Source: Ginglymostoma cirratum
Taxonomy: Eukaryota
Assembly: GCA_024137785.1 (NCBI GenBank)
Contig: JAHRHZ010000038.1
Coordinates: 12,700,050-12,764,049, forward strand
DNA: 64,000 bases
Direction of reading: 5' to 3'
The position numbers and the translations under genes were made by a program. This document shows positions 6,123 to 59,256 of this stretch, piece after piece. Each line of letters opens with the position of its first letter. Within the stretch, counting starts at the first letter, position 1. The notes beneath the pieces were generated by a model. It did no database searches and was not told where the DNA came from. It saw only the letters and a list, made by a program, of their open reading frames with translations.

Positions 6123-6339
6123 TAAAAAAAAGCTGTGCATGTTGGAAATCAGAAACAAACAGAAATTGCTGGTAAAACTAAGCATGCATGGCAGCATTTG
6201 TGGAAAGGAAACAGAGTTAACGTTTCAGTTCTAGAACTACCAGTTCTGAAGAAGGGTCACTGGACCCAAAACGTTAACTCTGCTTTCTCTCCACACATGC
6301 TGCCAGACCTGCCGAGTTTTTCCAGCAATTTCTGTTTTT
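6123..6339. mobile_element. Palindromic PLE-derived element, family B, with hammerhead-like core
   Basis: Inverted arms aaacagaaattgctgg...cagagttaacgtttc / aaacgttaactctg...ccagcaatttctgttt. TSD gctcataaatgaat (6109-6122) vs gctcataaataaat (6340-6353). Core at 6246-6275. Confidence 0.85.
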
Positions 6340-7129
6340 GCTCATAAATAAATAGTTGTTATCCAAGCAAATGCCATTCATGGACATATAATTCAGCAAG
6401 GAGTTAACATTTTCAAGTAGGAGAAGATTGGTGATGGGAAATATGTCTTCTCTCATTCCTGCATATGCATCATTTAGTGTTCAATTACATATCTGAAAAT
6501 AACATAATTTCAGCCAACCTTAATTTTAGATTGAAGCAGATAACTTGAATCTATGGGTGCATGGTCAAGCCATTCTATTCTGCACACAGTTACATAATGT
6601 TGTGCCAAGTGCTTAATGTTTTGAATTAGATGAACTGTAAACTGTACTTTGACTACTGCAATAGGTCAATTAGTAAGATTCTGCTAGCAATGCCTACAAA
6701 GTGTACTACCTAATATCTGAAGATGAAGGGCACACAATTCTGTAAGAAACTCCCTCTAACATAGAACAGTGTCTATAGTATAACTATTACACCTGGGGAA
6801 CCAAACTCACCTCCATAATAAAGCTGAAATTTTGCCAACTATTTGTCAGCCAAGCTTTAACCTCAGGTCCTAGCCAAACAGCATTGCAATATATCAGCTG
6901 GAACCACATAACGTGGCTCCCACGGTGAGAATTATAAGATAATCAAGATAAAATCTAACAGAAAGTCTCACTTTGGCTCTCAAACACCTGAGTTGCGGGA
7001 GGAAGACTGCAAAGCCACTTCACTTAGATTGGAAGGGTCCATGTAAACAGTCACATATTCCAAACTTCTTTAGATTTTGGAAGGGTCTCAGAACTGGAAA
7101 ATAACAAATTAATACCTTATTCAAGAAGA

Positions 7130-9930
7130 TGCTTCAGACAAGATAGAGAGGGATATAAAGGGTGGGGAGGGGAGTTGCGTTACAAATAAGGAAGAATATG
7201 ACAGCTGTACTGAGCAAGAACACACTGGAGGGCTCATCCAATGAGACCATATGAGTATAGCTCAGGAAGGATGTAATCACTTTACTGGGATCGTACAACA
7301 GATGTCCCAACATTCAGCAGGTGAAAGAGGAACAGATATATAGACAGATGGTGGAAAAAATGTAAAAATAACAGGGTTTTGGGGTGGGTGATTTTAATTT
7401 CCCCTTTATTGACTGGGACACATTTAGTACAAGGGGTTTGGAGAGTGAGGGGCAGAATTTGTAGGTGTGTCCAGGATAGCTTTTTGAAACTATGTAAATA
7501 GTCCAACTAGGGAACAGGCCATACTAGACCTGATATTAAGGAAATGAATCCAGCCAGGGATCGAAGTTTCACTGGGGGAGCATTTTGGGAACACTCCCCA
7601 TAATTCTGTAAGTTTTAAGTTACTTATGGATAAGGATAACAGTAGTCCTCGGGTGAAAGTAATAAATTGGGGGAAGGCTAACAACCAACAAAATATTAGG
7701 CAGGAACTGGGAAATGTAAATTGGGGGCGGCTGTTAGGGTAAATCCACATCTTGCATGCTGGAATTTTTTTTAAAAAAAGGCTGATTGATTAGACTTCAG
7801 GACCAATATGTTCCTGTGAAAATGAAGGATGAGGATGGCAAGATTCGGGAACCTTTGATGACAAGAGAAATTGACAGCTTAGTCAAAAAGATTAAAAGGA
7901 GACATACATAAGGTTTAGGAAACTGAAGATAGACAGCAATCTCGAATAATACAAAGATAGCAGGAATGAATTCAAAAAAGGAATTAGGAGGAGTAAATGG
8001 AGCCATAAAATGTCTTTGGCGAGCAGGAATAAGCAAATTCCAAGGTGTTTTATACAAATATAAAGAGCAAAAGGGTGGTTAGGGGAAGGATAGGTCCACT
8101 CAAGGACAAAACAATGAACTTGTGTGTGTAACCAGAGGAAGTAGTTGAGGTCCTCAACAAATACTTTGCATCAGTATTGACAAAGGAGAAGGACACTATG
8201 AATGGTGAGTCTCAGGAAGAGTTAGTTGAAATTCTAGGGCATGTCAATACAAAAAAGGTGTTGAATGTTTTGAAAAGCATTAAGGTTGACAAGTACTCAG
8301 CAAGGGATAGAATCTCTCTCAGAATGCAGAGGGAGGGAGGTGAGGAAATTGCTGGGGCCTTGTTTGAAATCTTTGTATCCTCTTTAGTCACAGGACAGGT
8401 GCCTGAGGATGGGAGAACAGCCAACGTTATTCGAGATAACAAGCATGGGGCTGGATGAACACAGCAGGTCAAGCAGCATCATAGGAGCAGGAAAACTTGA
8501 CGTTTCGGGGCTAAACCCGAGATAATCTGGGAAATTACAGGCCAGTGAGCCTTACGTCACTGCTAGGCAAATCACTGCAGAAGATTAATAGGGATAGGAC
8601 TTACTCACAGTTGGAAAAATATGGGCTTATTAGCAACAGGCAGCATGGCTTTGCGTGGACAAGGTTATGTCTTTCAAATTTTATTGAGCTTTTTGAGAAA
8701 GTGACAAAGATGATTGATGAGGGCAGCGCAGTAAATATTATCTATAGAGACTTTAACAAGGCTTTTGACATGGTGCCTTATGGCAGGCTGAAGGTGAATT
8801 CACATGGGATCTGCAGTGAGCTGGGAAGATGCACACAGAATTGGCTTAGTCATAAAAGACAGTGAGTAGTGGTAATCTATGAATAGCATGTTCTGTAGGG
8901 AGCTGTGCTGGAACCCCTGTTGTTTGTAATATATATAATTGATTTGGAGGAGAATATAGCGGCCCCGATTAGTAAGCTTGCGGAAGCTGCAGATAGTGAG
9001 GACTGCCAGAGGATACAGCAGGATAAGGATAAGCTGGAGACTTGGGCAGAGAAATGGCAGACGGAATTTAACCCAGACAAATGTGAGGTGATGCGCTTTG
9101 GAAGATATAATGCAAGAGGGAAGTATACAGCAAATGGTAGAACTCTGGGTAGCATGAACATAGAGGGATCCAGGTGTACAGGTTGACAGTTCCCTGAAAG
9201 TGCAGCATAAGTGGATGAGGTAATCAAACAGACATGTCATGCTTGCCTTCATTGGTCAAGATATAGAGTATTAAAAAAAAACAAAATCGGCATGTAGCAG
9301 CTGTATACAACTTTAGTCAGGTAACAATTGTTGGATACAAGGAGATAGCAAGAACTACAGATGCTGGGAAAGGGTCCCAACTCGAAACCTTGATTCTCCT
9401 GCTCTATTGATGCTGCCTGACCTGCTGTGTTCCTCCAGCTCCACACTGTATTGACAATGCTGTAATAGTGTTCTGGTCACTGCACTACCAAAAGAACGTG
9501 GAGGCTTTGGAGGGGGTGGAGAAATGGTTTGTTTTCATTTGAATATCAAAGGATAAGGGGACAACCTGATGGAAGTTTACTAAATTATGACCGGCATCAA
9601 TAGAATAGATAATCAAAGGCTTTTCAGGTGAGAAATGTCAATTACTAGGGAACATAGGTTTAAGTTAAAAGGGGGTAAGTTTAAAGGAGGTGTGAGAGGC
9701 AAATTCTTTCACGCAGAGGGCGGTAAGTCCCTGGAACACATTGCCAGAGGAAGTGATGGAGGCAGATACAATAATAACGTTTACGAAGCATTTTGACAGA
9801 GAAAAGAATAGGCAGCTGGATACAGACCACATAAAAGCAAAAGGTTCTTAGTTTAGAAAGGCATCATGCAATGGTGCAGTTTTGATAGGCCAAAAGGGCC
9901 TGTTCCTGCGCTGTACTATTCTTTGCTTTT
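7130..9930 (+). mobile_element. Long CR1 LINE remnant (APE endonuclease, RT, 3' UTR), carrying two PLE-derived inserts
   Basis: ORF fragments VPEDGRTANV, QHGFAWTRLCLSNFIELFEKVT...IYRDFNKAFDMVP, WAEKWQTEFNPDKCEV; CR1 3' tail gggcctgttcctgcgctgtac at about 9900. Confidence 0.9.
8432..8518 (-). mobile_element. Half copy of the young PLE palindrome subfamily A'
   Basis: gagataacaagcatggggctggatgaacacagcaggtcaagcagcatcataggagcaggaaaacttgacgtttcggggctaaaccc is nearly identical to the arms at 14374-14459 and 40904-40988. Confidence 0.9.
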
Positions 9931-9934
9931 AAAG

Positions 9935-10620
9935 GTGGGAGACAAAAAAGCAGGAAATTTTAAGTGAGCGAGCACACCATCTCCCACAGCAAAATGCTAG
10001 AATCCATTATTAAAGAAGTTATAGCAAATTACCTAAGAAATCACAATGCAATCAGACAGAGTCAACATGGTTTTGTGAAAGGAACATAACTAATAGAGGC
10101 CTTTGAAGACAAAAGGCATTTAATAAGCTGTCACAAAGGTCACAATACAAAATAAGAGCTCATGTTGTAGGTGATAACCTATTGGCATGGATTAAAGATT
10201 GGGCAGCTAACAGGGTACAGAGGGTGAAGATAAATAGATCTTTATTAGGCTGACAAACCAAAAGTTGCGGACTACCACAGGGAGCACTGCTGGGCCTCAG
10301 CTATGTGGAATTTATATTAATGATTTGGATGAAGGAAAAAAACTAAATTTGCCAATAACACCATAATAGGTGGAATGTAAGTTAGCAAGAAGAGGTAAAA
10401 AGTTTACAAACAGGTTATAGACTAGTTAAGTAAGTGAGCAAACTTTGGGCAAATGAAATACATGGGAAAATGTGAACTGGTCCGTTTGGCTGGAAGAATA
10501 TAGAAGCAGTGTACCATTAAATGGAAGCAGATTGAAGAATCCAGTTATACACCGGGAACTTGACATCTGGGTGCATGAAGTACTAAAGATTGGTATACAG
10601 GTACAGCAGATATACAGGTA
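9935..10620 (+). mobile_element. Older CR1 RT fragment
   Basis: cagagtcaacatggttttgtgaaagg (QHGF), cagggagcactgctgggcctcag (PQGS-like), atttatattaatgatttgga (IYINDL). Confidence 0.75.
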
Positions 10621-10890
10621 CGGACCAGCGCCAGGGACCCGGGTTCGATTCCAGTCTCGGGCGACTGTCTGTGTGGAGTTTGCACATTCTCCCCGTGTCT
10701 GCTTGGGTTTCCTCTGGGTGCTCTGGTGTCCTCCCACAATCCAAAGACGTGCAGGGTAGGTGGACTGGCTATGCTAAATCACCCATAGTGCCCAGGGATA
10801 TTTAGGTTAGGTAGGTTAGACGTGGGAAGCCGGGGTGGGATGGACTTGTTGGGGCAAATGGCCTGTTTTCATATTGTAGGGATTCTATGA
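10621..10890 (+). mobile_element. HE1-type V-SINE, 5'-truncated
   Basis: gggttcgattcc B box, V domain and CR1-like tail. Confidence 0.9.
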
Positions 10891-11159
10891 TAAATGAAAC
10901 TCAGGTAATCCTTTGTCATGTTCAATTCCTCTCATAATTAAGGATATCAGTCTTTTTCATTATGTGCTTTATCTGTATACTAACTTTTTTTTGACTTGTA
11001 CTGGAATACCTAAGCCCTGTGCACCTCAAATTCTGTGGTTCTCTGTTAAGTGATACTCTGCTTCTTTCATTCCCCCTTCACATTTTCCTGCACCATACTC
11101 CATCTGCTGGATTTTTTGCCCATTCAGTCTACATCCATCTGCAAATTCCTTACTACTGA

Positions 11160-11445
11160 CGGAATCCCTACAGTGTGGAAGCAAGCCATTTGGCCTATCA
11201 AGTCCACACTGATCCTCCAAAGAGCATCCCATCCAGACCACCTGATTTCCAATGGCAAATCCATGGACACTACGGGCAATTTAGTATAGCCAACCCACTT
11301 AATGATGTTCACATCTTTGGACTGTGGAAGGAAACTGAATCACCCAGAGGAAAACTACATGAACAGCATGTGCAAACTCCACACAGACAGTTGCCCAGAT
11401 TCCTAGAGCTGCAAGGGAGCAGTGCCAACCACTGAGCCACCGTCA
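11160..11445 (-). mobile_element. HE1-type V-SINE within a minus-strand CR1 fragment (about 10900-11600)
   Basis: Reverse complement of head (ccactgagccaccgt), V domain (tgtgcaaactccacacagacag) and tail (gaatccctacagtgtggaag). Confidence 0.85.
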
Positions 11446-11929
11446 CTGCTGTCCTTGCTGCCTAACATACCTCTCCACCTATCTTTGCGTAAGCAGCAAA
11501 TTTAGTTGCCATGCCATCATTCCACCCCCTCCCCCAAATCTATGCCACTGATGTAAATTGTAAAGATTCCAAGGCCCAGCACAGACATCTCGCTAATGCA
11601 GCAGCAGCAAGGTGAGTGGCAGTGCAGAAGCCAGAGACAGTTGGGTTTGCCAACCAATAAACTTATGGGTGTTGGGGGGTGGGGTTTCAGATCAAAACAA
11701 CAACTCTTATCCCTGAAAATCCGCCAGAAGTATCCCTGTGAAAAATTTGCTTTACCCCACATGGGGAGCCACAAAACATCACTTAAGAAATGTTGGCAAC
11801 AGCCAAGTTTGCAAATCCTAAGTCTGAAAGAAAATCGAACTTGCACACTAGATTTCTAAGTAAAAATCCCCAAGGCATGCTGACAGTTCCAGAGTCCATC
11901 TGGTGAATGTGTGATGGTATAAAGGGGGA

Positions 11930-13940: not shown

Positions 13941-14339
13941 CGTTAGAGGTGATGTGGAGGTGTCGGTGTTGGACTGGGGGGAACAAAGTCAAAAATCACA
14001 CGACACCAGGTTAGAATCCAAAATAACAAGGTGTAGAGCTGAATGAACACAGCAGGCCAAGCAGCATCAGAGGAGCAGGAAGGCTGACGTTTCGGGACTA
14101 GACCCTTCATCAGAAATGGGGGAGGGGAAGAGGGTTCTGAAAGAAACAGGGAGAGAGGGGGAGGCGGATAGAGGATGGATAGAGGAGAGGAGGCAGACCG
14201 GTCAAAGAGGCGGGGTTGGAGCCAGTAAAAGGTGAGTTTAGGTGGGGAGTTAGGGAGGAGATAGGTCAGTCCAGGGAGGACGGACAGGTCAAGCGGGCGG
14301 AATGATGTTAGTAGGTAGGAGATGGGGGTGTGGCTTGAG

Positions 14340-14532
14340 AGAGATAAAAGGTACTGCAGATGCTGGAGAATCCGAGATAACAAGCATGGGGCTGGATGAA
14401 CACAGCAGGTCAAGCAGCATCATAGGAGCAGGAAAACTTGACGTTTCGGGCCTAAACCCTTTTCTGATGAAGGGTTTAGGCCCGAAACGTCAAGTTTTCC
14501 TGCTGTGTTCATCCAGCCCCATGCTTGTTATC
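14340..14532. mobile_element. Young 193-bp palindromic PLE-derived insertion (subfamily A')
   Basis: Perfect 16-bp TSD gggggtgtggcttgag (14324-14339 and 14533-14548), inverted arms, hammerhead core at 14464-14491. Confidence 0.92.
14464..14491 (+). ncRNA. Minimal type I hammerhead ribozyme motif
   Basis: CTGATGA-A-GGGT-TTAG-GCCC-GAAA-CGTC has all catalytic-core nucleotides, a 4-bp stem II, a palindromic ACGT in place of stem III, and a GUC cleavage triplet. Stem I is weak (UUU/AAG). Confidence 0.75.
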
Positions 14533-15889
14533 GGGGGTGTGGCTTGAGGTGGGAGGAAGGACAGGTTAGGGAGGCGGAGATGAGCTGGGCTGGTTTTGGG
14601 ATGCAGTTGGGGGAGGGGAGATTTTGAAGCTTGTGAAATCCACATTGATACCATTGGGCTGCAGGGTTCCCAGGCTGAATATGATTTGCTGTTCCTGCAG
14701 CCTTCAGGTGGCATCACTGTGGCACTGCAGGAGGCCCAGGATGGACATGTCGTCTGAGGAATGGGAGGGGGAGTTGAAATGGTTCGCGAATGGGAGGTGC
14801 AGTTGTTTGGTGCGAACCGAGTATAGGTGTTCTACAAAGCGGTCCCCAAGCCTCCGCTTGGTTTCCCCAATGTAGAGGAAGCCACAACGGGTACAGCGGA
14901 TGCAGTATACCACATTGGCAGATGTGCAGGTGAACATCAGCTTGATGTGGAAAGTCTTCTTGGGGCCTGGGATGGGAGTGAGGGGGGAGGTGTAGGACCA
15001 GGTGTAGCACTTCCTGCGGTTGCAGGGAAAAGTTCCGGGTGAGGTGGGGCTGGAGGGGACTGTGGAGCGGACAGTGGTCCCTCTGGAAAGCAGATAAGGG
15101 TGGGGAGGGAAAAATGTCTTTGGTGGTGGAGTCGGATTCCGCTTGGGAAGGTTGCAGGAACGGCAACTCATATTCCGCTTGGGAACCCTGCAGCCCAATG
15201 GTATCAATGTGGACTTCACAAGCTTCAAAATCTCCCCTCCCCCTACCGCATCCCAAAACCATCCCAGCTCATCCCCGCCTCCCTAACCTGTCCTTCCTCC
15301 CACCTATCCTATCCTCCCACCCCAAGCCCCACCCCAATCTCCTACCTACTAACCTCATCCCGCCCCCTTGACGTGTCCATCCTCCCTGGACTGACCTATC
15401 TCCTCCCCAACTACACTCACCTCTACTGGCTCCATCCCCGCTTCTTTGACCTGTGTCTCCTCTCCGCCCATCTTCTCCTCTACCCATCTTCTATCCGCCT
15501 CCCCCTCTCTCCCTATTTATTTCAGAACCCCCTTCCCCTCCCCCATTTCTGAAGAAGGGTCTAGGCCCAAAACGTCAGCCTTCCTGCTCCTCTGATGCTG
15601 CTTGGCCTGCTGTGTTCATCCAGCTCTACACCTTGTTATCTCAGATTCTCCAGCATCTGCAGTTCCTGCTATCTCTGAAACAAGGTTATAATCCAACATT
15701 ATTTTTATTTGAAATCACAAGGTTTCGAAGCGCTGCTCCTTCGTCAGGTGCACCTAAGAGGGATCGATAGGAGGCACCAGGTTCAAGTCCCATCTTCTTC
15801 AGAGAAATGTAATAATCTCCGACTGGGTTGATTTGGAAAATATTAGCTAATTTGATTATCTCTGTAATGAAAGAGTATAATCTCTCAAA

Positions 15890-16302
15890 AGTGTGGTTGG
15901 TTGGCTCACCGAGCTGGTTCGTTAGTTCACGGACATTTCATTACCCTGCTGGGTAACATCATCAACGCAGCCTCCGATGAAGCGCTGTTGTGTTTTCCCA
16001 CCTGGTATTTAAACTTTGGGGTCCGTTGGAATTGGTTACCTCATTTCAGGTTTTCCTTCGCAGTGGTATATATATAGGGTCTAATTCTACGTGTTTATTG
16101 ATGGCCTTCTTGGTGGAGAACGAAACCTCTAGAAATTCCCGTGCTTGTCTCTGTTTAGCCTGTCCTCGGATCCTGATGTTGTCCCAATCGAACTGGTGGT
16201 TCTCCCAATTCCAATGAAACGTCTGTGAACTAACGAACCAGCTCAGGGAGCGACCAACCACACCATCCACAACCCAAACTACAAATCTACTCAAAAACCT
16301 TA
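15890..16302 (-). mobile_element. Penelope/Poseidon-like fragment (GIY-YIG C-terminus plus terminal repeat with a short inverted arm), family D
   Basis: ORF 16046-16423 has HQFDWDNIRIRGQAKQRQAREFLEVSFSTKKAINKHVELDPIYIPLR. Inverted repeat gagctggttcgttagttcac (15911) / gtgaactaacgaaccagctc (16225). Degenerate hammerhead at 15932-15965. Confidence 0.8.
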
Positions 16303-16344
16303 AATCTCTTGTTGGTTTTGGGTTTATTATATTTTTCAAAAGGA

Positions 16345-18562: not shown

Positions 18563-20282
18563 GTGCTGAATCTTACATAACAAGGTGTAGAGCTGTATGA
18601 ACACAGCAGGCCAAGCAACATCAGAGGAGCAGGAAGCCTTCCTGCTCCTCTGAAGCTGCTTGGCCTGCTGTGTTTATCCAGCTCGACATCTTGTTATCTC
18701 AGATTCTCCAGCATCTGCAGTTCCTACTATCTCTGCTGAATCTTACAGTTTTTTTCACTAAGTGTGAGTTGTGTCGAAGTTTTTGGAGGGATTCTCGCTG
18801 GAGGCCTATGTATATTTCACAACTCACCTCATTAACTACTTAACAACTATTTCGCCCTACTGCATCCCTCTTGTCTAATTCTATCCACATTTTAACATAA
18901 CTCACCACTTAGTAGGTGCTCACTGATGAACTGGCAGCTTTGCACTCACACTATCATTTAAAAGCCTAATGTGCACTTTGGACAAGCACTGTCTGTCCTC
19001 AGCTGCAGTTCACATCCCTGACGTTTTCCCTGTACCTGCCAAACAAGGAAATTGGCACATAGGAACTGAAAGTGCGGCTGGATAGGGCAGTGCAATCAGG
19101 GAATGGCCTCTTGCCCAGGACCAGCCCTGGGAGCCACAACACCAGACTGCACTAGAATGGTCACCTGGGTTATTGGAGTTTCAATCATCTGAAGGAATGT
19201 CCAATAGTGCAGAAAGAAAGTTAGTGACCTTCTCCATTCCACCAGTGTTTGTGCCACCATCACTCTGATATCTCACACTAACTCTACTATTGTACACATG
19301 TCCCACAGAAGCCCACACACTACCACTCTCACTACTGCAACATCTTCCCCACTCACACTCACTCACCTCAACACCCCTAACCCTGCCTACTCACTCACCC
19401 AGGAAACTTCCATCTGCATCAATTATGCCACCCACTTTTCTCTCCTGTAAAACGTGCCTCTTTCTCATTCCAGGAGGAAAACGGTGCACAGTAGGACGGA
19501 AATGCAAGTTGGGTGGTCATTTGCCCATATGTGAAGAGGATCCTTACTCTGATCACCCTGAGCATCTGATTTACTGTGCAGGGCCTCTCTGACTGCAGTC
19601 TACCTACCTCAGCTTCAGTGAGGACTGCTGACAACCATGACAAACTTCCTGGCTTTGTGTCTGCACTAAACAGCAAGGCCCCAAGACAGAAGTAATATGA
19701 GCCTGGTAGGTCTGGCTGGGGGAAAAGTTCAAAAAAGGCAAAGCATTGCAAGGCAGGGATATTGTGTGCATTCAGGTAGGCTCAGAGTGCGTAAGCACTT
19801 AACAGCAAACAAAGAACCTGGAGATGCAGCCAGATCTGGTCCATGAGGTTGATGTGTATTCCTGAGCACAAAGTGTCATCACTGCAGCTTTCCAATAATA
19901 GTTGTCACTGCAGCCCAAAGTGCACTATTGAATTGAACAAGCATACTGTATTGTGGGGTGCAGATACACCATTAGTATTCTTAGGAGCTGGTACATATTT
20001 GATGCCCGTGTGCGTGGATGCGCATAGCCGGTGTGCCGTAGCCACCAGCAGCAAGAACACTGCAAAGTCCCTGCATTAGCAAGCACTTGCCTTCACCACC
20101 ACCGCCCCCCACCCCCGCCACATGATTTCATAAGACAAGTGCCAAAGAATCCAGTTGCATGATTAATGAAGATCAGAAGATTGCATGAGGAAAAAAAAAA
20201 ATCGCCATGCTTCACGGTGCACTTGGCGCCATGAATCTTGCTCGAGAAAGCACTGTCCAAAAAAAAATTGAAAATTCAGTCC
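18563..20282 (+). mobile_element. Probable PIF/Harbinger-type DNA transposon derivative with Myb/SANT-like relic
   Basis: Imperfect terminal inverted repeats gtgctgaatctt / aaaattcagtcc. From about 19202 the plus strand translates Q*CRKKVSDLLHS, resembling the QCRKKxNDL helix of Harbinger Myb/SANT-like proteins. Confidence 0.55.
18578..18733. mobile_element. Palindromic PLE-derived insertion, family A, hammerhead core absent
   Basis: Perfect 14-bp TSD tgctgaatcttaca (18564-18577 and 18734-18747). The arms meet at gcaggaag|ccttcctgc. Confidence 0.9.
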
Positions 20283-29480: not shown

Positions 29481-29901
29481 GGATGTTTCACTCACCAAGT
29501 TAAAGAAAGGAAGGGATGTGATACATGTGTTAAGTTTCTCAGTACGTCACACATTTCAGAGACATACTCATGATATCATCACTGTTTTATAGTATGACCT
29601 GAGGGTATAAAGTTTTCAGACTTCATCTTACCATGGATCACGTGAAGCACACACATGAATAGAAGAATGCTACTCTTTGTAACTGAATAGCCTGTGAGGC
29701 ACTATTTGTATATTTTAATAAGCTGACATAAGTGTCAGTTGGATTTTCCAATGTCACATTACCCACATTTAGATTATGTTTCAGGAGGTAATGTAAGCAT
29801 TGCTGCACCAGATAGAGATGCCCTGAAGGAGGCAAAACATTTAGCAAATCCACAAAATGGGTAATTTCAATCTCAGTTAAACAGCAGTCCATTAACTCCC
29901 T

Positions 29902-31092
29902 GTGACCAGAAAAGTAGACAACGGTGAGTCAGTCAATGTTGTGTATCTGGACTTTCAAAAGGCTTTCGACCAGGTTCCACACAAGACATTAGTAAGGAAA
30001 ATTAAAACTCATGGTATCAGAGGTAACGTATTGACATGGATAGAGAACTGGTTGGCAGTCAGGAAGCAGAGAGTTGAAATAAATGGATCCTTTTCAGAGT
30101 GGCAAGCAGTGACGAATAGGGTACCGCAGGGTTCACTGCTGGGACTCCAGCTGTTCACAATATACATTAACAATTTGGGCGAAGGCATTGAATGCTATAT
30201 CTCCAGACTTGCAGATGACATTGAGCTGGGTGGCTGTGAGGAGGATGCTAAGAGGCTGCAGGGTGACTTGGACAATCTGGCTCAATGGGCAAATACTTGG
30301 CAAATGCAGTATAATGCGGATAAATGTAAGATTATCCACTTTGGTCATAAAGACAGGAAGGCAGCTTATTATCTGAATGGTGGCAGTTTAGGAGGTGCAA
30401 CAAGACCTGTCATTGAAGGTTGGCATGCAGGTGCAGCAGGCAGTGAGGAAATCTAATGGCATGCTGTCCTTCATAGTGAGAGGATCAGAGTGAGGATGTC
30501 TTGCTGCAATTATACAGGGCTTTGTTGAGGCCACATCTTGGGTATTCTGTGCAGTTTTGGTCTCCTACTCTGAGGAAGGACATTCTTGCTATTGAGGGAG
30601 TCCAGTGAAGATTCACCAGACCGATTCCTGGGATAGCAGGACTGACAGATGAGGAAAGACTGGATCAACAGGGTTTGTATTTGCTGGTATTTAGAAGAAT
30701 GAGGGGAGATCTCATGGAAACATATAAAATCCTGATGGGACTGGACAGGCTAGATGTGGGAAGAATGTTCCCGATGTTGGGGAAGTCCAGAACTAGGCGT
30801 CACTGTCTAAGAACAAGGGGTAAGCCATTCAGGACTGAGATGAGGAAGAATTTCTTCACTCAGAGTTGTGAACCTGTGGAATTCTCTCCCACAGGAAGCT
30901 GTTGGAGCCAGTAAATTAGACATATTCAAGAGGGAACGAGACATGGCTCTTGCAGCTAAAGGGATCAAGGGAATATGGAGAGAGGGCAGGAATGGGACAC
31001 TGAGATTGCATGATCAGCCATGATCGTATTGAATGGTAGTACAGGCTCGATGGGCTGAATGGCCTTCTCCTGCACCAACTTTCTATGTTTCT
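29902..31092 (+). mobile_element. CR1 LINE, 5'-truncated (RT to 3' end)
   Basis: ORF 29902-30456: VVYLDFQKAFDQVPH...VPQGSLLG...RLADDIELGG...WQMQYNADKCKIIHFG; CR1 3' tail at about 31000-31090. Confidence 0.92.
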
Positions 31093-36860: not shown

Positions 36861-37178
36861 GGCACGGTGGCTCAGTGGGTAGCACTGCAGCCTCACAGCG
36901 CCAGGGACCCAGGTTTGATTCCAGCCTCAGGTGACTGTCTGTGTGGAGTTTGCACATTCTCCCCGTGTCTGCGTGGGTTTCCTCCGGGTGCTCCGGTTTC
37001 CTCCCACAGTCCAAAGATGTGCAGGCTAGGTGGATTGGCCATGCTAAATTGCCCATAGTGTTCAGGGGTGTGTGGGTTATAGGGGGATGGGTCTGGGTGG
37101 GATGCTCCAAGGGTCGGTGTGGACTTGTTGGGCCGAAGGGCCTGTTTCCACACTGTAGGGACTCTAATGATTCTAATG
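36861..37178 (+). mobile_element. HE1-type V-SINE, near full-length, young
   Basis: ggcacggtggctcagtgg...V domain with retained CpGs...gggccgaagggcctgtttccacactgtaggg. Confidence 0.93.
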
Positions 37179-40903: not shown

Positions 40904-41562
40904 AGATAACAAGCATGGGGCTGGATGAACACAGCAGGTCAAGCAGCATCATAGGAGCAGGAAAACTTGACGTTTCGGGCCTAAACCCTTCATCAGAAAT
41001 GATTTCTGATGAAGGNNNNNNNNNNNNNNNNNNNNNNNNNNNNNNNNNNNNNNNNNNNNNNNNNNNNNNNNNNNNNNNNNNNNNNNNNNNNNNNNNNNNN
41101 NNNNNNNNNNNNNNNNNNNNNNNNNNNNNNNNNNNNNNNNNNNNNNNNNNNNNNNNNNNNNNNNNNNNNNNNNNNNNNNNNNNNNNNNNNNNNNNNNNNN
41201 NNNNNNNNNNNNNNNNNNNNNNNNNNNNNNNNNNNNNNNNNNNNNNNNNNNNNNNNNNNNNNNNNNNNNNNNNNNNNNNNNNNNNNNNNNNNNNNNNNNN
41301 NNNNNNNNNNNNNNNNNNNNNNNNNNNNNNNNNNNNNNNNNNNNNNNNNNNNNNNNNNNNNNNNNNNNNNNNNNNNNNNNNNNNNNNNNNNNNNNNNNNN
41401 NNNNNNNNNNNNNNNCCCTTCATCAGAAATGATTTCTGATGAAGGGTTTAGGCCCGAAACGTCAAGTTTTCCTGCTCCTATGATGCTGCTTGACCTGCTG
41501 TGTTCATCCAGCCCCATGCTTGTTATCTCGGATTCTCCAGCATCTGCAGTACCTTTTATCTC
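40904..41562. mobile_element. Young palindromic PLE-derived insertion (subfamily A') spanning the assembly gap
   Basis: Perfect 14-bp TSD tggccaaaaacctt (40890-40903 and 41563-41576), perfectly complementary arms, and intact hammerhead cores on both strands (40969-40996 minus, 41436-41463 plus). Confidence 0.92.
41016..41415. other. Assembly gap (400 N)
   Basis: Run of n. Confidence 1.
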
Positions 41563-46382: not shown

Positions 46383-46527
46383 GGCGTAGTAGGAACTGCA
46401 GATGCTGGAGAATCTGAGATAACAATTGCATTTCTGAAGAAGGGTCTAGGCCCAAAATGTCAGCCTTCCTGCTCCTCTGATGCTGCTTGGCCTACTGTGT
46501 TCATCCAGCTCTACACTTTGTTATCTC
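46383..46527. mobile_element. PLE-derived insertion, family A (inverted tail plus hammerhead arm)
   Basis: 15-bp TSD taaa(t/a)aaatgggtaa (46368-46382 and 46528-46542); decayed core at 46434-46461. Confidence 0.85.
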
Positions 46528-49734: not shown

Positions 49735-50142
49735 GAGTCATAGAATCATACAGCATGGATACAGATGTTTCGGTCCAACTCATCCGCGCCGACCAAACAT
49801 CCCAATCTGACCTTGTCCATTTGCCAGCATTTGGCCCACATCCTTCTAAATCCTTCCTATTCATATATTCATCCAGATGCCTTTTAAATGTTGTAATTCT
49901 ATCAGCCTCCACCACTTCCTCTGGCAGGTCATTCCTTGCAGGCACCACTGTCTGTGTGAAAAAGTTGCCCCTTAGGTCCCCTTTAAATCCTTCCACTCAC
50001 CTTAAACCTATGCCCTCTAGTTTTGGACTCCCCCACCCTGGGGAAAAGACCTTGTTTATTTACCCTAACCATCCCTCTCATGATTTGATAAACCTCTATT
50101 AGGTCACCCCTTCACTTCTGACGCTCTGGGGTAAAAAGCCCC
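49735..50142 (-). mobile_element. CR1 3' end
   Basis: ORF GFKGDLRGNFFTQ...LPEEVVEA...FKRHLD; tail gagtcatagaatcatacagc. Confidence 0.9.
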
Positions 50143-51281
50143 ATATTAAAGTAAAACGAATTCTTTGGAATGCAAGTATTAGTTTTATATCAGATTGTGC
50201 AGCTTTATTTTTCTGAAATTATACCTTAAAAAGTACCCAAGTATTAACTTGTCAGTGAAGAAAAAGCAACTATAATGTGCACTTTTGGTGCCAGTAGTTA
50301 CAGTTGACAGAGGCCAGTTTCCAAGCAGTAAATAGTGGTGGGATAATGATTAGGTGCTGCAAAAGGGTGGGATAAACTGATAGTAATAGTGATAATCTTT
50401 TGAGTGCTTTCTGAGGAAACTAGTTCATAAAAACAATGGGAAACAGGTGATTATGTTGTATGAGAGCTTCTTCTCCATTCAAAGTGTAATCTCTTGGTTG
50501 ACCACTTCTCAGTGACTAATTAACACTCAAGTCTTCACTCACAAAAGAGGCAGAATCCCTGCATAATCATCATAAACTCTTCACCCCTAAAGCAGCAACT
50601 TTTGTAAAACGGAATAAAGGCCATTCAGCCCATCTAACTGCACCTTTGATTAAACATGTTTGATTTTGTATCTTTTTGGAATCCTAATTTAAATCACCTG
50701 AGATAAGTTGCATAACTCAAGTTGGGTTCAAATATTATTTGATTTAATTTCTCTTTGAAATCAGAAAGATGCACTGTCTACAAAATTAGATGTCATTTCC
50801 TGTCACACAAACACTTTGTCTCAAATCTCAGAGACAAAACATTTAACATGCAGTTTGAATAGCTTTATAAATCTACTTAACAGTGAAATTCTTCAGCATC
50901 CTTTGTTGTGATAGAATTGGGCACTTGAAATGGTTTCTGTCAGCCCCATTAGTGGAATTCCATCACTTAAGGAATAATTCCAGAAAGCATACAAAAACAA
51001 GTTAGATTCATTCTCAGGGCAAGTACAGAATGGTGGAGTTTATCCGAAGACAATTTTGTTTTTAGGGCAGTTCAACCTAGTATGTTAACAACAAAAGAAT
51101 TAATAACTTGCTGCCAGGTAATACGATATCAATCCACCATGCAAAAAATTGATAGGATACAATCATTGTATCCCAACATTCACGCAACATTTTAAATTGA
51201 TAGATGATCTGAACAAAAGACAAGCGTTCTGTGGAAAGGGGAAAACATGACGCAAGATCATATGAAGTATTCTCTGTCTCT

Positions 51282-51317
51282 CGCGTGTGCGCACACGCAC
51301 ACGTGCACACACACATG
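51282..51317. repeat. Alternating purine-pyrimidine tract
   Basis: cgcgtgtgcgcacacgcacacgtgcacacacacatg. Confidence 0.9.
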
Positions 51318-52255
51318 GGGGCAGGATGCCAGCCCATTTGCTAAACCAGAAGATGCAGTGTCAACCCAGGAAAAATGTATTACAAAGGGCACACCGAGCA
51401 AACAGAATACCATTTAGAATGTTATACACAATACCTTTGAGACCTATTTGGCAGTCTATTTGTTAATAGAAATTCTCACTAACTCTATTTAAACAATGCA
51501 GATTATTTTAAATTTCTCAATTGACTATTGAATTCATCAACAACTGGTGTAAAGTTTTAATAGAAATTGTATTTTGGCCATTTAATTTTTTTTTGAACAG
51601 AAACTTTAGAAGTCTTATGATTCTGGAATTCACATTGCCAAAAGAAATTAGTAACATCTGGTCTAACCCGATTTTCTTAATCTCTCAATACTATGAACAA
51701 AATAAGAATTTTCCCGTTAACCATTTCTAAAACAGTACCTTTTCAGTTTGTTGATAAATATCAGCTTAGACTGCACAACAAATACAGCATTTTGTTCATA
51801 TTACAGCTTATTTTTAAAAAATACTCAACCTATTTACCAAATGTCAGTGTTTTATATTCTCTTAGTCAACTCAAATCAAGGGCTCTGGAAATAGTTATTC
51901 ATACAGAAAATGCCTTTTCATTTTGTTGTATTGCCATGTCTATATTTGTCTTCCCAGCGATGGCTGTTATTCAATTCAGGCAGTGTACTTTATAATTAAA
52001 GCTTGCCGAGTAACACTGGTTCATCAAATATTAATAGTGAGGGAGTTGATGACATTAAGGCAACAAATTAGATCACCGACTTATTGTTAGAACCCTGTCC
52101 GAAAGTGGTTTGTAACCAGCAGTTCTATTTCAATGGTTTTAAAACAATACATATTATACCTTTTAGTATTTAGCTTAATCTTCCAAGACAAATGTAGAGC
52201 TCATCATTTAAACTCTTCTATCAAAAATTCTTAATCTTTATCTCAAAAATCTTAC

Positions 52256-52673
52256 CAACACGAGTGGGGAAATTTTCCTCATTATTGATCAAGGCCTCAA
52301 TCCAGTCCATGAGCAAATTCATATATTTTGGAGCAGTCACTTTGGTTGGTTTCTTATACTTGTGTTCATCCTGCCACCTGTACTCATACTTCAGCCCGCC
52401 AGACATGACAGGACAGCTCCTTTCGGTGCAATACTCACAAATGGTACCATAGATGAGGTTGATACGATTGAAGAAATCTACAGTGTTGACTGCAATCCAG
52501 TCATTGAGGTTTTCCCCTGCAGGAAGCTGAACTACTGTCTTGAGATCGACACCAGATTTAAGTGAGGCCTGCGCCTTCTTAAAGAGCTCGAAGCGTTGGG
52601 TTCCAGGCTCAAACTTCTTTCGGGGTCGAAAAGTCCTGTCCTTATTAAAGACTTGCTTCAGGCAAAGGGCCAT
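52256..52673 (-). CDS. MOB3C: MOB kinase activator 3C, first coding exon (418 nt coding)
   Basis: [30 protein letters not shown]...NFPTRV(G). The [10 protein letters not shown]-terminus is characteristic of MOB3C. Donor GTT G|gtaag at 52256/52255, phase 1, matching the next exon. Likely acceptor tactgtcttacag| at 52832/52831. Confidence 0.96.
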
Positions 52674-53075
52674 CTTTCAGAAAGTACAGCGAGGTACCAA
52701 TCTCTTCCTTTAAAAAGGGATTCAGTATAAAAAGGGTTTGTTTCTTTCTTGGCTTAAGCTGATTGTATTTAAGAGCTTCAGATATTTTAATTAGTTTGCT
52801 CTCCACAAGTTGCTGCAGCCATCTGTGTATTCTGTAAGACAGTAGAAACATTTTGCATTCAATTGAACAGAGTCCAGTGATATTTTTTCAAGGTATCCAA
52901 TTGATTGGCATATCAACTCCTGGTAAAGCTACCACTTTGTCAGAACTTAAATACACCAATATGCAATTTTAAGGTACAAGTTAAAATGTTAACAGAGAAC
53001 ATTCATGTCTCATTGTCTGTCAGAACATAAAATAGACATGCAACCTGGTATTTCGACATTATAGACTAGACAATT

Positions 53076-53303
53076 AAAGTTTTTGAGGAGACTTGTAGCT
53101 TGGGTTGTGGATGGGATTGTTGATTTGTTCACCGAGCTGGTAGGTTGATTTGCAGATGTTTTGTCACCATAGTAGGTAACAAATAACAAACAGGAAAGAC
53201 CAACAATGGTTCATCGGAGGCGCAGTGATGATGTTACCTAGTATGGCGATGAAACATCCCCAACCAACCTACCAACTCGCAAAAAAAAAAAATCAACAAA
53301 CCC
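53076..53303. mobile_element. Palindromic PLE-derived element, family D (Poseidon-like terminus)
   Basis: Perfect 13-bp TSD agactagacaatt (53063-53075 and 53304-53316). Arms gagctggtaggttg / caacctaccaactc. Decayed hammerhead gtgatga-t-gttacc-tagtat-ggcgat-gaaa-catc (53225-53258). Confidence 0.82.
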
Positions 53304-54059
53304 AGACTAGACAATTTCCTAGGACATTGCAGGACAGGAACAGGCAAGGAAAAGAGGATACAGGCCATGTGCAGGCAGATGGGATTGGTTTATAATGGCT
53401 GGCACAGACATGGTGGGCTGAAGGGCCTGTTCCTGTGCTGTACTGTTCTATGTTCATGTGAAGCCATTCTCTAGTGTAGTCTACAATGCATTACAGGTGA
53501 ACTAGGGCTAGAAATTGGTGATAATTGGGCTAGATGGCAGATGGATTCAGTCTCCATTTTAAATTCACATAGTCTTTCATTTGTAAGACATAACTATAAA
53601 TTATACAACAGTGAAATAAGTCCAGGAAAACTTGTTGCAATTCACAAAGCAAACAGATCTCAAGAAGCTTTACACATTGAGGTGTGAAATGTCATAGCTT
53701 GAAGGGGTGATGCAAGTACAGTGTGACATATTCACATATGCAGTTTTCAATATGAATACACACAGAGGAAAATTTGACAGACTTTGTAAATCTAGGATTT
53801 TCTTTTAAGAATATAATAGGTTCATGTCAGCAGAAAAGGAGATCTTGGAACAATCAACTATCTTTTCATATCCATTCCCCAGATCCCTTGATTGACTGAG
53901 AAATCAAAACTATCTATTTATCTCAGCCTCAAACACAGTCAACCATGTATTCATCCACAACTCTTTGGGGTAGGGAATTCAAAAGGTTCACAAGCCTCAA
54001 TACAATGAAATTTCTCTTCATCTCAGTCCTAAATGATCAACCACTTTTCCACAACTTAT

Positions 54060-54973
54060 TGTAAAGACCGTATCTTTTTATTTTTCTGTATTTTTGATAA
54101 TGGACTGAAATTGGAAAACGACTGCTTTACAAGCCAAAGATTGTTGAAGGATTACTGCACTTTTTTGCTTAGAAAAAGCCAACTTACTTGAAATGGCCGT
54201 CATTCTAGGTGAAAGCTGACTTACAAATGAGCTGCAGCCACTGTGTATGAACGGAGATTTGATCAGAAACAAATAGCTAATTGTTCTGTGAAGTGGTGAT
54301 TTCTTATTGACGATAAAGGTCTCCCACCTGCCAATAAATGTGAGATTGGCTTTCAGGTAACTAAACTGCTTGGGCTAGCGTGTTTGGATCAGAAGTTATC
54401 AGATCTTTCAAAGAGAAGCTGTATTTGCTCTGCAGTAAAATGATCTCAAGCCTGAACATAATGTGTTTATTTCTCTTCATCAATTGCTGTGAGCTGTGAC
54501 TTTTAATTCATAAGTCAGAGACCCTCATAAGTGTGGACCAGTCACCCTATGCCTCCTGCAAACAAGTGAAAGTATCTGGAAAAGGAGGACCAAGGAACAG
54601 TGTTCAGCTTAGCAAAAGGGTCACGTCAGCAAATCCTGTGGACAAGGACTACTGAGCTGCCTTCACAGTCTCTCTCTCCACCCATAACACCCTTTTTGTG
54701 TTTGTCTGTGTGTAGCGGAAGTTCAATGAGTGGGTTAGAGTTTTGGCTAGTAGAGTTATATGTCAATGGTTCATAACTTTATCAGTAGCTAGAAATTTTT
54801 TTTTTTGCAATAAATAGTTACTCATTAAGTCTAGACACCTAGATTGTGCTGTCAACTAAATGACAGAAAAATAAATGAGGAATTTTGTGTACTTTTATAA
54901 ACTCTAATTTCATTGATTACGCTGGGTAAAGCAGTGCTGAGTATCCAGGTGACTACCCCAGTGAAGCAAAACA
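54060..54973 (+). mobile_element. Solo LTR, 914 bp
   Basis: Begins TG, ends CA, flanked by a 4-bp TSD TTAT (54056-54059 and 54974-54977), has an internal AATAAA near 54809, and cleanly interrupts a minus-strand CR1 (about 53830-55210). Confidence 0.75.
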
Positions 54974-56643
54974 TTATGCCTTGGTTTTCTAGATCTTCCA
55001 CTCCAGGGAAAATATCATCTTAAAGTCTTGTATGTTTCAATGAGGATACTCATTCTTCTAAACTTCAGGGAGTTTAGGCCCAACTTACTTTGTATCTTAT
55101 CACAGAACAACCCTCCCATGCAAGGAGCCAATATAGCAAATCTTTGCTGTATCCCCTTCAATGCAAATAACTCCTTTAAATAAGGAGCTCAAAACTGCTC
55201 ATATTATTCCATGTGCAATGCTAAACGAGGTTTACACCTGGCCATTCAGACAGAGGCAAACATTGAAGCAGAATGTATGTCAAAGGTGGGGGAGTTCATT
55301 GACATAAAAATTATTTCAATATAATTTGCACTGTTACCATTCTGCTAATATACCCTTAACACATTTCAAATTAAGATATTATAACTGAAAATTTCTGTTA
55401 AAGGTTCAGTTTACTAAAAGCTGATATGACCTTCTTTGAATGGAGACTCTAGAATCAAGTTACTTTGGGATGTTTCAGAAGTGAAACTGATAAAGAAGTG
55501 AACTTGACCTTGAGGCAGCTATGTTGGAAAGAGTAGGGTTGCTTCAGATGGTCCTGAAACGCAATACACTACGTCTGTGGCATGTTGAATGCTCTGGTTT
55601 CAAGGAATCCCATGGATTTAGATTACACTGTAACCTTGTTATTCCTAATTAAGCTGCTATGGGCCATATTGACTAAAATCACTAGAGAAAAAAAAACAAC
55701 TTAAAAGGCTTTCCCACAGGTATTAATATTAACTCTATATTTTAACAAAATAAGATTTTTCGGAGCACAAAGTTTTCCATTACAAGTTAAGCTCTGTGAA
55801 CATAAGAAAATCCTCCTGGATTTGGCTTCTGCTCTAAATGACTGCAGAATAAAATTCAGAAAATCTCCAGACAATCTTAAATAGATTTAAAGCATATTAA
55901 ATAAACCAGCTGTAACATTAAAAAAATCAAAGTTATTCTGAGAATTATCGTAGTTGACATGCATATTTCAAATGGTACAGTGTTTGTCAACAGTGGTCAA
56001 CATAGCAGATGACAGACAGAGAAGTTACGGTAAAATTTGTTTTCAAACTGTGTCAAGTAACAACTTTTAATTAACTATTTAATATGAAATAATTGATACT
56101 TATTAGATTATAAAACCAAAAAGAAATAAAGATAAACATGAGCCCATTTGTCCAAAATACATAGGGGTCCAGAAATTCAATGGCACTATGCTCATTTTGA
56201 GCATTAAATGGGTGCTTAGGACTAATGTTCTCTCACTCTGACATTCCATGTACAGCAACCGGCACACTGACGCTAACTGCAGCATTGACTTCCAGTTCCA
56301 GAAGTCACTGCCACACATGAACCTTGGAGCACCATATGGAAGATAAGGAAATTAGAGGGACCACTGCCAAGGACTCCAATGTGGTTGGCTGGAAGCACAC
56401 ACCAGAAGGAACAAACCATAAAACTTGCAAATGGGGCATACTAGTCCATATAACCCATCTTGTAATTTTCAAAATGGAGAAACAGTATGTTCCTTTCTAA
56501 CTATTGCTTTCTTTTAAAGAAAAAGTTGTTTTTCCAATTGGGAAAGTTCTCTGTCTGAACTTGTATTGCATTCATAATAAAGTAAATGAGGTGACTGCAT
56601 GCATTAAAGTCAATAAATACAACTCTTTTGCTTTTACAAGTTA

Positions 56644-56965
56644 GAGCAGCACGGTGGCTCAGTGGCGAGCGCTGCTACTTCATTGTATCAGGGTTCAATT
56701 CCACCAGCAGACAACTGTCTGTGTGGTGTTTGCACATTCTCCCTGTGTCTGCGTTGGTTTCCTCCCACAATCCAAAGATGCGCAGCTTAGGTGGATTGGC
56801 CATGCTAAATTGGCTGTAGTGTCCAGGGATGTGCAGGCTAGGTGAGTTAGCCATGGGAAATGCAGGCTGATAGGGTGTGGGGCTGGGTCTGGCTGGAATG
56901 ATTTTGGAGGGTTGGTGTGGACTTGATGGGCCGAACAGCCTGCTTTCACACTGTAGGGATTCTAT
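56644..56965 (+). mobile_element. HE1-type V-SINE
   Basis: gcagcacggtggctcagtgg, V domain, tail gggccgaacagcctgctttcacactgtagggattcta. Confidence 0.9.
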
Positions 56966-58322
56966 CAATACTGAGGGGTACATGACATTCAAGAAGAATA
57001 GGAAACTAGGTAAATGTAGAGGGGTAGCATTGTTAATCAAAGATGGCATTGGTTCAGTAGTTAGAGGTGACCTTGGTTCAGGAGATCAGAAGGTCAAAAG
57101 GGTTTTGGTGCAGATGAGGTACAGAAGGGCAAAATCGTCACTAGTGAGAATGACCTTCAGGCTGCTTAACAGTAACCACAGTTCAGGGTGTTCAAATGCA
57201 CAGGAAGAAATGTTGAATGTTTGTGATAAAGGGCTGGCAAAAATCCGACAGTAACCATATCTCTAACAACCACAATTTATGGCAAACTTTACACGAAAAA
57301 GTATCAGGTGTTTGTGATAAAGGGCCAGCAAAAATCACAGGTGATTTTTATTTACATAAATTGGAAGGATTAGATTGACAATAGTAGCCTGGATGAGAAC
57401 TTCATAGTACGCTTTCAAGATAATTTCTTAGAACAATACGTTCTGGAACAAACCAGAGAGAAGGATAAATTGAACTCATTATCGTGTAATTTCTCTTAAC
57501 AGTGTGCCACGTCAGACCCTGTCAAATGCCATACTAAAATCCGTGTAGACAACATCTACCACACTACTTTCATTAATCTTCCATGTTACTTCTTCAAAAA
57601 AAATCAATTAAGGTAATAAGAAATAACCTTTTGTTAATAAATTTATGCTGTCTATCCCCAAATAATCTGTGTCCCTTCAAGTTACGGCTAATCTCATCTC
57701 TCAATATCGATTCAAGTAATTTGCACTCAGAACATTTACCCAAGGGAAAACAACATTTATATAGCATGAGAGAAGATTAGTGACTGGTTTTCAGGAAGCG
57801 ATGGCCATGCAGAGGCATCAGTTCTTTTTCAGCAAAATCTCAAGTTCTGTACTACCAAATGATGAAATATTATTTACATTAAGTTTTTCAATTTAATTAG
57901 CTCTTGGTTTCCTGTTATTTCTAATATTTCTTTTGTGTCTCCTATAGTGAAGCCAGGCACAGTGCATCCAATTAACCTCTCTACCGTTTCCTTATTTCCC
58001 ATTAGAATTCCACTGGCACAGCCTCTAAGGAACCTCCCTTTATTTAGCTACTCATTTCCAGTTTACGCACTCTCATACCCTATATTGTCCCTTCCTATCA
58101 ACTTTTTGGTCAGTTTAAGCTGGTATCCAAAACTTTTCCAATCACAAAGCTTCTTGGCAATATTGTAAGTATTTTAATATAAAATTCTCCTTAACAATTT
58201 TAGTTAGACATAAATGGATCTATCTTCCTGTGGAGATTTTCATTTCTCAGTAGAATATAGACTTTTTGAGAATTATGAAACATTCATTCAAAAATGTTCA
58301 CCTCTCCTCATCTACTGTCATA

Positions 58323-58511
58323 TGTGATGTGGAAGTCCCAGTGTTGGACTGGGGTGGACAAGTTCAGAGTCACCAGGTTATAGACCAACAAGTTTATTTG
58401 AAAACATAAGCTTTCAAAGCGCTGCCCCTTCATCAGGTGCAGTCAAGCTCCAAAAGCTTTTGATTTCAAATAAACCTGTTAGGCTGTAACCTGGTATTGT
58501 GTGACTTTTGA
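58323..58511. mobile_element. Palindromic PLE-derived element, family C
   Basis: 11-bp TSD cta(c/t)tgtcata (58312-58322 and 58512-58522). Arms ccaggttatagaccaacaagtttatttgaaa / tttcaaataaacctgttaggctgtaacctgg. Minus-strand core CTGATGA-A-GGGGC-AGC-GCTTT-GAAA-GCTT (58408-58436). Confidence 0.85.
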
Positions 58512-59029
58512 CTATTGTCATACAGTTTAACTTCCTAAGCTACTTTACCCTACTGTCCAAATTTCTCTGTCTTTGACTTGACTTTAAGTTCTAATTATGA
58601 AAGTGAATTTATTTATAAAACTCCCAAGCTCAGCGTGAAATTCCTTAATTTTGTGACCACTCTTTCCCAGCGAATGCCTTAGTTTGAGATTATCCTGTCT
58701 CATAACACAAGACAAGATCTAAAATAAATGCTTCACTTGTTGGTTCCAAAATATTTTCCTTGAACTTTAATTCGAAATTAGTTTTGCTAATTTTATTTAT
58801 TAAATTTGTATGAAAATTCAGGTTTTCAATTATTATTGCATTGTCTTTGACACAAGCTGCTCTTAATTTGATTAGTATACTGTCAATCAAGATAGCTATT
58901 GTTGAGGAGCCAATAATTTACTTTTCTGACACGTTACTTCTTAACTTGACCATACTGATTACACTTCCTGTTCTGCTGAGCCAAGATTTTTCCACATTAC
59001 TGTCTTTAAGTCATCCTTAAGTTAACGCT

Positions 59030-59256
59030 AAATAAAAACCAAAAGAACTGCGGATGCTGTAAATCAGGAACAAAAACAAGGTTGCTGGAAAAGCTCAGCA
59101 GGTCTGGCAGCATCTGTGGAGGAGAAAACAGAGTTAATGTTTCGGGTCCGGTGATCCGTTCTGAGGAAGGGTCACAGGACTCGAAATGTTAACTCTGTTT
59201 TCTCCTCCACAGATGCTGCCAGACCTGCTGAGCTTTTCCAGCAACCTTGTTTTTGT
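59030..59256. mobile_element. Young palindromic PLE-derived element, family B
   Basis: TSD tccttaagttaac (59014-59026 and 59257-59269), about 75-bp near-perfect arms, core CTGAGGA-A-GGGTC-ACAG-GACTC-GAAA-TGTT at 59161-59190. Confidence 0.92.

Follow-up and report, generated by a model that had tools for sequence, protein, structure and literature searches.

Penelope-like elements (PLEs) carry minimal hammerhead ribozymes in their pseudo-long terminal repeats (pLTRs), and the closest described system is that of Cervera and de la Pena 2014 (PMC4209133). In that paper, the ribozymes form families with compensatory changes, an extra base after A9, a G10.1-C11.1 pair and a palindrome, they number about 4,000 in coelacanth and about 9,000 in Xenopus, and they cleave weakly as dimers; a review restates the dimer model of hammerhead cleavage. 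We analyzed a stretch of 64,000 nucleotides of the Ginglymostoma cirratum genome (GCA_024137785.1, contig JAHRHZ010000038.1, positions 12,700,050 to 12,764,049; hereafter the window), in which a preliminary description had noted four hammerhead families, A to D, with different stems and a common core, and had rated this pattern surprising. The motifs share with those of 2014 the CUGANGA/GAAA core, the extra base after A9, G10.1, the palindromic 15.2-16.2 segment, the lack of stem III and a short stem I, as well as the presence of several families per genome, mostly as single truncated copies and opposite-strand pairs, in pLTRs. Because the 2014 paper describes these same features, the pattern as first noted was already known and repeats that result in one more vertebrate; two searched supplement files of the paper contain no shark name (file 1 lay outside the search). 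What differs is a stem II of 4-5 bp in families A-C, together with a position at a putative transcription start and an extra G at the junction, neither of them described in the consulted portions of the 2014 paper. We consider it rather probable that minimal type I hammerheads reside in the terminal repeats of four PLE lineages and that, in three of these, the motif stands at the very 5' end of a capped RNA, which as a rule is copied uncut.

Other PLE systems resemble the present one in part. In PAc, a Poseidon element of the anole Anolis carolinensis (Frangieh et al., 2024, PMC11167929), reverse transcription begins at internal sites, RNA that has not been processed serves as the main substrate, and protein is required for the hammerhead to cut. 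As here, its hammerhead lies in the pLTR, its copies have two 3' ends (the "tail"), and evidence points to uncut RNA as the usual template; however, the PAc evidence comes from in vitro work on an element whose open reading frame (ORF) starts inside the hammerhead, whereas ours is a genomic signal from families that we regard as Neptune-type, with no such signal in the Poseidon-type family D. Neptune and Penelope/Poseidon elements (Craig et al., 2021, PMC8557442) likewise have a reverse transcriptase (RT) followed by a C-terminal GIY-YIG domain, inverted 5'-truncated partners and the tail; the CX2-5CxxC linker of the clades in that paper matches A, B, and C, is missing from D, and also occurs in Nematis. 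A pLTR promoter is described for Drosophila virilis Penelope (PMC2377424), where it is TATA-less and internal, unlike the putative promoter here, and for Adineta vaga (PMC3846280), where it has a putative TATA box and an initiator. The A. vaga paper favors an antisense template, whereas the short copies here, judged by the cap-like G reported below, would come from a sense template. The non-LTR retrozymes of Li, Clavereau and Pollet (2026 preprint, 10.64898/2026.07.22.740005) are also non-coding, hammerhead-bearing and PLE-derived, and are reported in one chondrichthyan. They are tandem arrays, whereas the window copies are dispersed kilobases apart or form head-to-head pLTR fragments; identity with the retrozymes was rejected, as the window holds no tandem array with a hammerhead in each unit.

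The host genome comprises 4.36 Gb in 289 contigs. A strict descriptor, which asked for both core boxes, a single bulged base and at least 4 bp of stem, found 6 matches in the window, compared with 0.01 on average (maximum 1) across 100 dinucleotide-shuffled sequences. A CpG-tolerant descriptor gave 12 against 0.21; a descriptor without the bulged base recovered only 2. One hundred evenly spaced 10-kb genome stretches (1 Mb, 495,915 readable bases) yielded 37 strict matches versus 0-1 in 20 shuffles; the tetramer, left free in the descriptor, was ACGT or a CpG product of it in 33 of the 37. This sample extrapolates to very roughly 300,000 strict motifs genome-wide, but exact counts are preferred because about half of it was unreadable. 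Exact patterns, in which stem II and two tetramer bases were left unconstrained for B, C, and D, matched 65,316 times for family A, 27,279 for B, 8,359 for C, and 7,673 for D, with 0, 0, 13, and 1 matches, respectively, for the reversed-pattern controls. The total for the four families, at least 108,627, stands against the far smaller coelacanth and Xenopus numbers, which were obtained with different descriptors. The motifs are far above chance, and all four families exist. Rfam covariance models gave no hammerhead among 16 matches at E up to 5, only microRNA-like matches from inverted repeats. Two of the microRNA-precursor matches, of sub-gathering score, at 59110-59216 and 18598-18674, are head-to-head inversions of PLE ends and not likely to be real microRNAs.

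The hammerheads are located in the pLTRs of elements encoding RT and GIY-YIG, as seen from their linkage to the ORF and from locus L114, where a pLTR flanks the ORF on either side. The GIY-YIG fragment of the window (15139-14590, minus strand) has 107,425 candidate relatives, and in long copies the coding region runs from RT through a cysteine linker to GIY-YIG. Downstream of 21 of the 27 RT-core matches in the fetched loci lies a same-strand hammerhead flank whose family always matches the RT type; the remaining six have no hammerhead flank inside the fetched stretch. In a tree of 15 RT fragments, all from this genome, with a fragment of a long interspersed element (LINE) RT from the window (29896-30453, plus strand) as the outgroup, A and B grouped together (support 100/99), apart from C (97/100) and D (92/90). 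RT identity was 62% between A and B, 26-33% from C to A or B, and 25-28% from D to A or B. The preliminary description had proposed relating each hammerhead family to its PLE clade by RT phylogeny, and this link was recovered. A C-x4-C-x2-C linker precedes GIY-YIG in A, B, and C (L117, L026, L054, L140, L145), and no cysteine linker precedes it in D (L088, L092, L102). Since the linker marks Neptune or Nematis and its absence marks Penelope/Poseidon (Craig et al., 2021), and since only Neptune and Poseidon have been found in vertebrates (2026 preprint), we infer that A, B, and C are Neptune-type and D is Poseidon-type.

The structure was examined in copies chosen by their 3' flank, with at most one core mismatch per box (n=134 for A, 99 for B, 78 for C, and 82 for D). 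The ten fixed letters of the core boxes CUGANGA and GAAA are the majority in every family, with the free N7 varying between and within families, and family A copies anchored without core letters were 94-99% identical at non-CpG core positions. The bulged base between 9 and 10.1 is A in 131/134 (A), 97/99 (B), and 78/78 (C) copies and U in 77/82 of family D. The pair 10.1-11.1 is G-C or its CpG product G-U in 131/134 (A), 84/99 (B), and 65/78 (C); in D it is G-U in 69/82, and the main D master may carry G-U there. H17 is G in only 1 of 393 copies. The cleavage triplet is of the GUC type in A and D and of the GUU/CUU type in B and C, for which weaker dimer cleavage would be predicted. No family has a stem III, and the 15.2-16.2 palindrome is ACGU or its CpG products in A, B, and D (ACGT or ACAT/ATGT/ATAT in 127/134, at least 84/99, and 70/82) and AGCU in C (AGCT in 66/78), which bears out the switch between two palindromes noted earlier. 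The commonest forms are GAAA-CGU in A, B, and D and GAAA-GCU in C; the "(G/A)AAA" and "GAAA-UGUC" boxes first given for B and D do occur, as products of CpG decay. One family C subfamily seemed to have lost part of its core, but this reading was discarded, as the gap was slippage in 3 single copies.

Stem II positions are paired in 95% (A), 87% (B), 82% (C), and 94% (D) of cells, versus 39-47% after shuffling. Changes on one side of the stem are common (A pair 4: 92 U-G and 32 U-A; C pair 3: 45 A-U and 29 G-U), and changes on both sides are rare (B pair 2 A-U in 4/99, C pair 5 U-A in 6/78, D pair 3 C-G in 4/39); the tetramer switch between lineages is also two-sided. Only A and B have homologous flanks, and the stems of C and D can be aligned only via the core. 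Decay was compared between core and flank for family A only (0.026 and 0.029 per site in 68 and 166 copies); the same test in B was discarded because 6-8 of 41 rows were mis-anchored. Since the core of family A decays at the flank rate, selection would act on the masters and not on inserted copies. A core that is invariant, with a free N7, across lineages whose RTs are only 25-33% identical is best read as the result of selection on RNA structure in master elements, which likely preserves the core they share. The earlier claim that the covariation argues for selection on master structure therefore keeps its conclusion, but the word covariation overstates the evidence, as the pair counts given below for C and D indicate.

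The position at which copies begin was scored on incidental copies picked by their 3' flank alone (A and B) or on core-selected copies (C), after dropping rows with N at the junction. In family A, 40 of 145 5' ends fell at -6 to -1 relative to the core and 10 in the whole interval -99 to -7, and 34 belonged to long copies; the corresponding numbers in B were 45 of 122, 16, and 6, and in C 30 of 75 ends fell at -9 to -1. An initiator-like pyrimidine-A step lies at -4 (A), -4 (B), and -7 (C), and the first T of a TATA-like box lies 31 (A), 29 (B), and 31-32 (C) bases upstream of it, as counted by hand on long copies. If transcription starts at the initiator-like A, the RNA would open with the 5' strand of stem I; among B copies and A copies of the AAG type, this strand consists entirely of the four bases from that A onward. 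The 3' ends fall at two places, 35-40 nt apart, a tail pattern that in PAc was tied to two internal RT start sites (Frangieh et al., 2024).

An untemplated G frequently precedes the initiator-like A. Junctions were counted when the base before this A was not the template C and a non-C was also present eight bases upstream, a requirement that excludes most long A copies. G stood there in 3,038 of 5,697 non-template junctions in A (53%), 2,027 of 4,262 in B (48%), and 396 of 591 in C (67%), compared with 0.29 expected from the dinucleotide background. One base downstream in family B, G made up 38 of 100 G/T junctions (the first 100 among the matches listed), equal to the background of 0.39. Twenty hand-picked, seemingly non-inverted family A junctions with G were then examined: 5 proved inverted, one further match was a tandem repeat of the element, and 8 had a target duplication of 11-15 bp; chance matches of at least 9 nt occurred in 15 of 380 mismatched pairs. 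In all 8 resolved cases, G lay outside the target duplication, ending a filler of 2-33 nt. An extra G at full-length L1 junctions has been interpreted as a copied cap (PMC11702581); literature searches, whose scope left out most subscription papers, found neither the start-site position nor the extra G for PLEs. From the excess of G at the initiator A, we infer that the usual template in A, B, and C is likely a capped, sense and mostly uncut RNA.

The data suggest a smaller class of family A copies that begins at the predicted cleavage site. In the local sample, 7 of 145 A ends fell at +28/+29 (2 of 100 when copies with inversion were set aside) and no B end at +30. Genome-wide, 1,662 AAG-type A copies lack the base preceding the predicted cut; among the first 100 matches listed, sorting by hand gave 47 intact copies with a point change, 19 inverted copies and 34 with other flanks, which scales to about 560 copies with other flanks. 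The same hand sorting one base upstream gave about 90 of 231. With T as the preceding base, about 220 were obtained at the cut, about 60 one base downstream and about 30 at the A run within the core; two bases upstream, there were 111 matches in total. Of 21 cut-site junctions inspected, 3 were inverted and 3 showed microhomology with target duplication. These hand-sorted counts are suggestive of a 4-7-fold excess of family A 5' ends at the predicted cut. In family B, a sort of this kind, run with no control, gave fewer than 10 starts with unrelated flanks among the first 100 of 408 matches listed.

We propose that RNA polymerase II starts at the initiator-like A and that the element RT would initiate inside the RNA, some 100 or 135 nt further downstream at the two tail ends, reach the cap and copy it as G, yielding tens of thousands of short hammerhead-bearing copies. 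With stem III reduced to a palindrome of 4 nt, a hammerhead would cut only with the help of a second one or of the element's protein. A cut would release a capped leader of about 32 nt, and a minority of family A copies may derive from the cut 3' product. Our preferred guess for the purpose of the cut is removal of the cap, switching the RNA from translation to template use, or the reverse; another possible purpose is cleavage-linked cap-independent translation, which has been reported for viral hammerheads. The most specific form of the proposal holds that a Neptune-type hammerhead makes up the initial 35-40 bases of a capped RNA started from the TATA/initiator promoter, that thousands of insertions copied the cap as G from a sense, uncut template, and that several hundred family A insertions starting exactly at the GUC cut would be in vivo evidence for a minimal hammerhead that cleaves and uncaps its own mRNA. 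We put this form forward tentatively, as something slightly short of an even call.

The pile-up of 5' ends and the extra G could also come from the integration of elements with ordinary PLE ribozymes, through endonuclease preference, microhomology or terminal tailing by RT, and have nothing to do with a start site or a cap. Untemplated fillers and inversions at the 5' junctions fit this explanation, and so does the ATT at the family A boundary, given that the anole endonuclease prefers ATT adjoining the pLTR (PMC11167929). However, B and C show the same effect without ATT at the boundary, the G is specific to the initiator A and outside the resolved target duplications, the spacing of the TATA-like box is repeated in three lineages, among them C with its unalignable sequence, and an RT stalled by structure would be expected to halt 3' of the fold rather than past it; we regard integration as an unlikely source. 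Still less probable, in our view, is that the fold is kept as a binding or folding signal for the PLE protein, with cleavage incidental. In the anole, catalytic mutants left in vitro insertion unchanged and no RNA-seq ends were found at the cleavage site (PMC11167929); here, the whole motif is kept in most copies, and stem I has only 2 bp in one A subfamily. Against this, the lineages all retain G8, G12 and the NUH triplet, variation at N7 and H17 stays within hammerhead rules, and family A ends are in excess at the predicted cut. That the motifs reflect shared descent or chance hairpins in repeats, without any structural selection, is very improbable and largely excluded: formal covariation is lacking, A and B are related and Rfam finds no hammerhead, but the core is identical across lineages with strongly diverged RTs and unalignable flanks, and the shuffle controls are near zero.

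Several results nevertheless weigh against a capped, usually uncut hammerhead RNA kept by selection on its fold. By hand, about 20 of the first 100 family C matches listed had their G templated by an inverted arm, G is templated at the junction position in 3 of 22 printed long A copies, and because a 2-33 nt filler precedes the element in the 8 resolved junctions, terminal tailing by the RT could account for the G with no cap involved. In family D, 5' ends do not pile up (4/35 at -20 to -1). Four public contig sets of uncertain RNA status, aligned with 15400-15690, repeat the genomic ends and do not bear on expression, strand or RNA ends; no RNA 5' end, cap or cleavage product was observed. 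The clade names rest on the linker motif, the tree being made of fragments from this genome. Minimum-energy folds of single copies did not have the hammerhead as the lowest-energy form (5/5), and within-family covariation was not significant: pair counts in C (30 copies) were no better than in shuffles (227 and 424 of 500), and those in D (39 distinct copies) were marginal (14/500), within the stated false-positive range of the tool. Pair 4 of stem II in family C is C.C in 7/78 and G.G in 3/78 copies, a departure from the earlier statement that the stems differ but stay paired, which holds for 82-95% of cells. The mismatch, C.C or G.G, recurs at this pair in subfamilies (L134, L136, L141, L155, L193; L146, L271, L277) that still spread, and thus three core-proximal base pairs may suffice.

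The copies and associated features of the window are the following:

6242-6279, plus strand: family B minimal hammerhead, short copy with a 4-bp stem I and the core from 6246
14086-14113, minus strand: family A hammerhead downstream of the GIY-YIG fragment
14464-14491, plus strand: family A hammerhead with intact core, part of an inverted pair
14590-15139, minus strand: 5'-truncated end of the family A ORF, cysteine linker and GIY-YIG, about 90% identical to a long copy
15514-15545, plus strand: TATA-like box (15514-15520) and initiator-like A (15545), the putative promoter and start of the 15549 copy
15549-15576, plus strand: family A hammerhead at the 3' end of a long copy
15577-15683, plus strand: 3' part of the family A pLTR, with the two usual ends at about 15641-15645 and 15676-15683 (PLE tail pattern)
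15719-15747, minus strand: family C hammerhead, tetramer ACCU in this copy
15932-15965, minus strand: family D (Poseidon-type) hammerhead, 7-bp stem II, C3 changed to U
40969-40996, minus strand: family A hammerhead, left arm of an inverted pair
41436-41463, plus strand: family A hammerhead, right arm of the pair, from a young subfamily in which many copies are 100% identical
46434-46461, plus strand: family A short copy starting five bases ahead of the core
53225-53258, plus strand: decayed family D hammerhead, C3 changed to G, two stem II mismatches, GAAA-CAUC
58408-58436, minus strand: family C hammerhead, tetramer AGCU, starting G-A-C seven bases ahead of the core
59161-59190, plus strand: family B hammerhead within a head-to-head inverted pair (arms 59066-59162 and 59164-59260)

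Five of the copies cited in the preliminary description lie where it placed them, but four of the five cited for B-D deviate from the letters quoted or are decayed. The copy at 59161-59190, quoted with GACCC and CGUU, has the loop ACAG, the 3' arm GACUC and GAAA-UGUU, and that at 53225-53258, listed beside the minus-strand D copy, lies on the plus strand. The copy at 15747-15719 reads GAAA-CCUU, and its tetramer is therefore non-palindromic. At 6242-6279, G12 has become A by CpG decay and an inverted partner lies directly upstream. The GIY-YIG fragment matched PF01541 with an E of 0.0012, under the curated cut-off. The young family A subfamily (L001-L010; 40904-41528 in the window) occurs as perfect palindromes, head to head, in which a single central base lies between the two arms at the inferred start site. 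At G000:C133:57518227-57518428, sequence from the family A 3' flank is repeated in tandem as three units of 85 bp, without the hammerhead core.

Besides the PLE copies, the window contains an exon of a MOB kinase activator gene at 52224-52676 on the minus strand (PF03637, E 2e-42), surrounded by repeats. LINE-type RT fragments (PF00078) occur at 8515-8862 on the plus strand and at the tree outgroup position. A further dispersed family, with repeats of about 300 bp that carry no hammerhead (2080-2297, 10592-10809, 36862-37079, 56692-56964), probably represents a short interspersed element. At L072:2319-3110 (plus strand), an open frame adjoining a family C copy resembles, as we take it, an exon of the BMP/GDF family.

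What is added here to the 2014 result is the start-site position, the cap-like G and the ends at the cut site, which bear on the strand and form of the PLE template and on cleavage in vivo. If the cap reading is true, it would give exact positions for the mapping of RNA ends, and the junction count could be repeated in any PLE-rich genome. The template of these elements would then be sense, capped and mostly uncut, and the ribozyme would sit where a cut would remove the cap.

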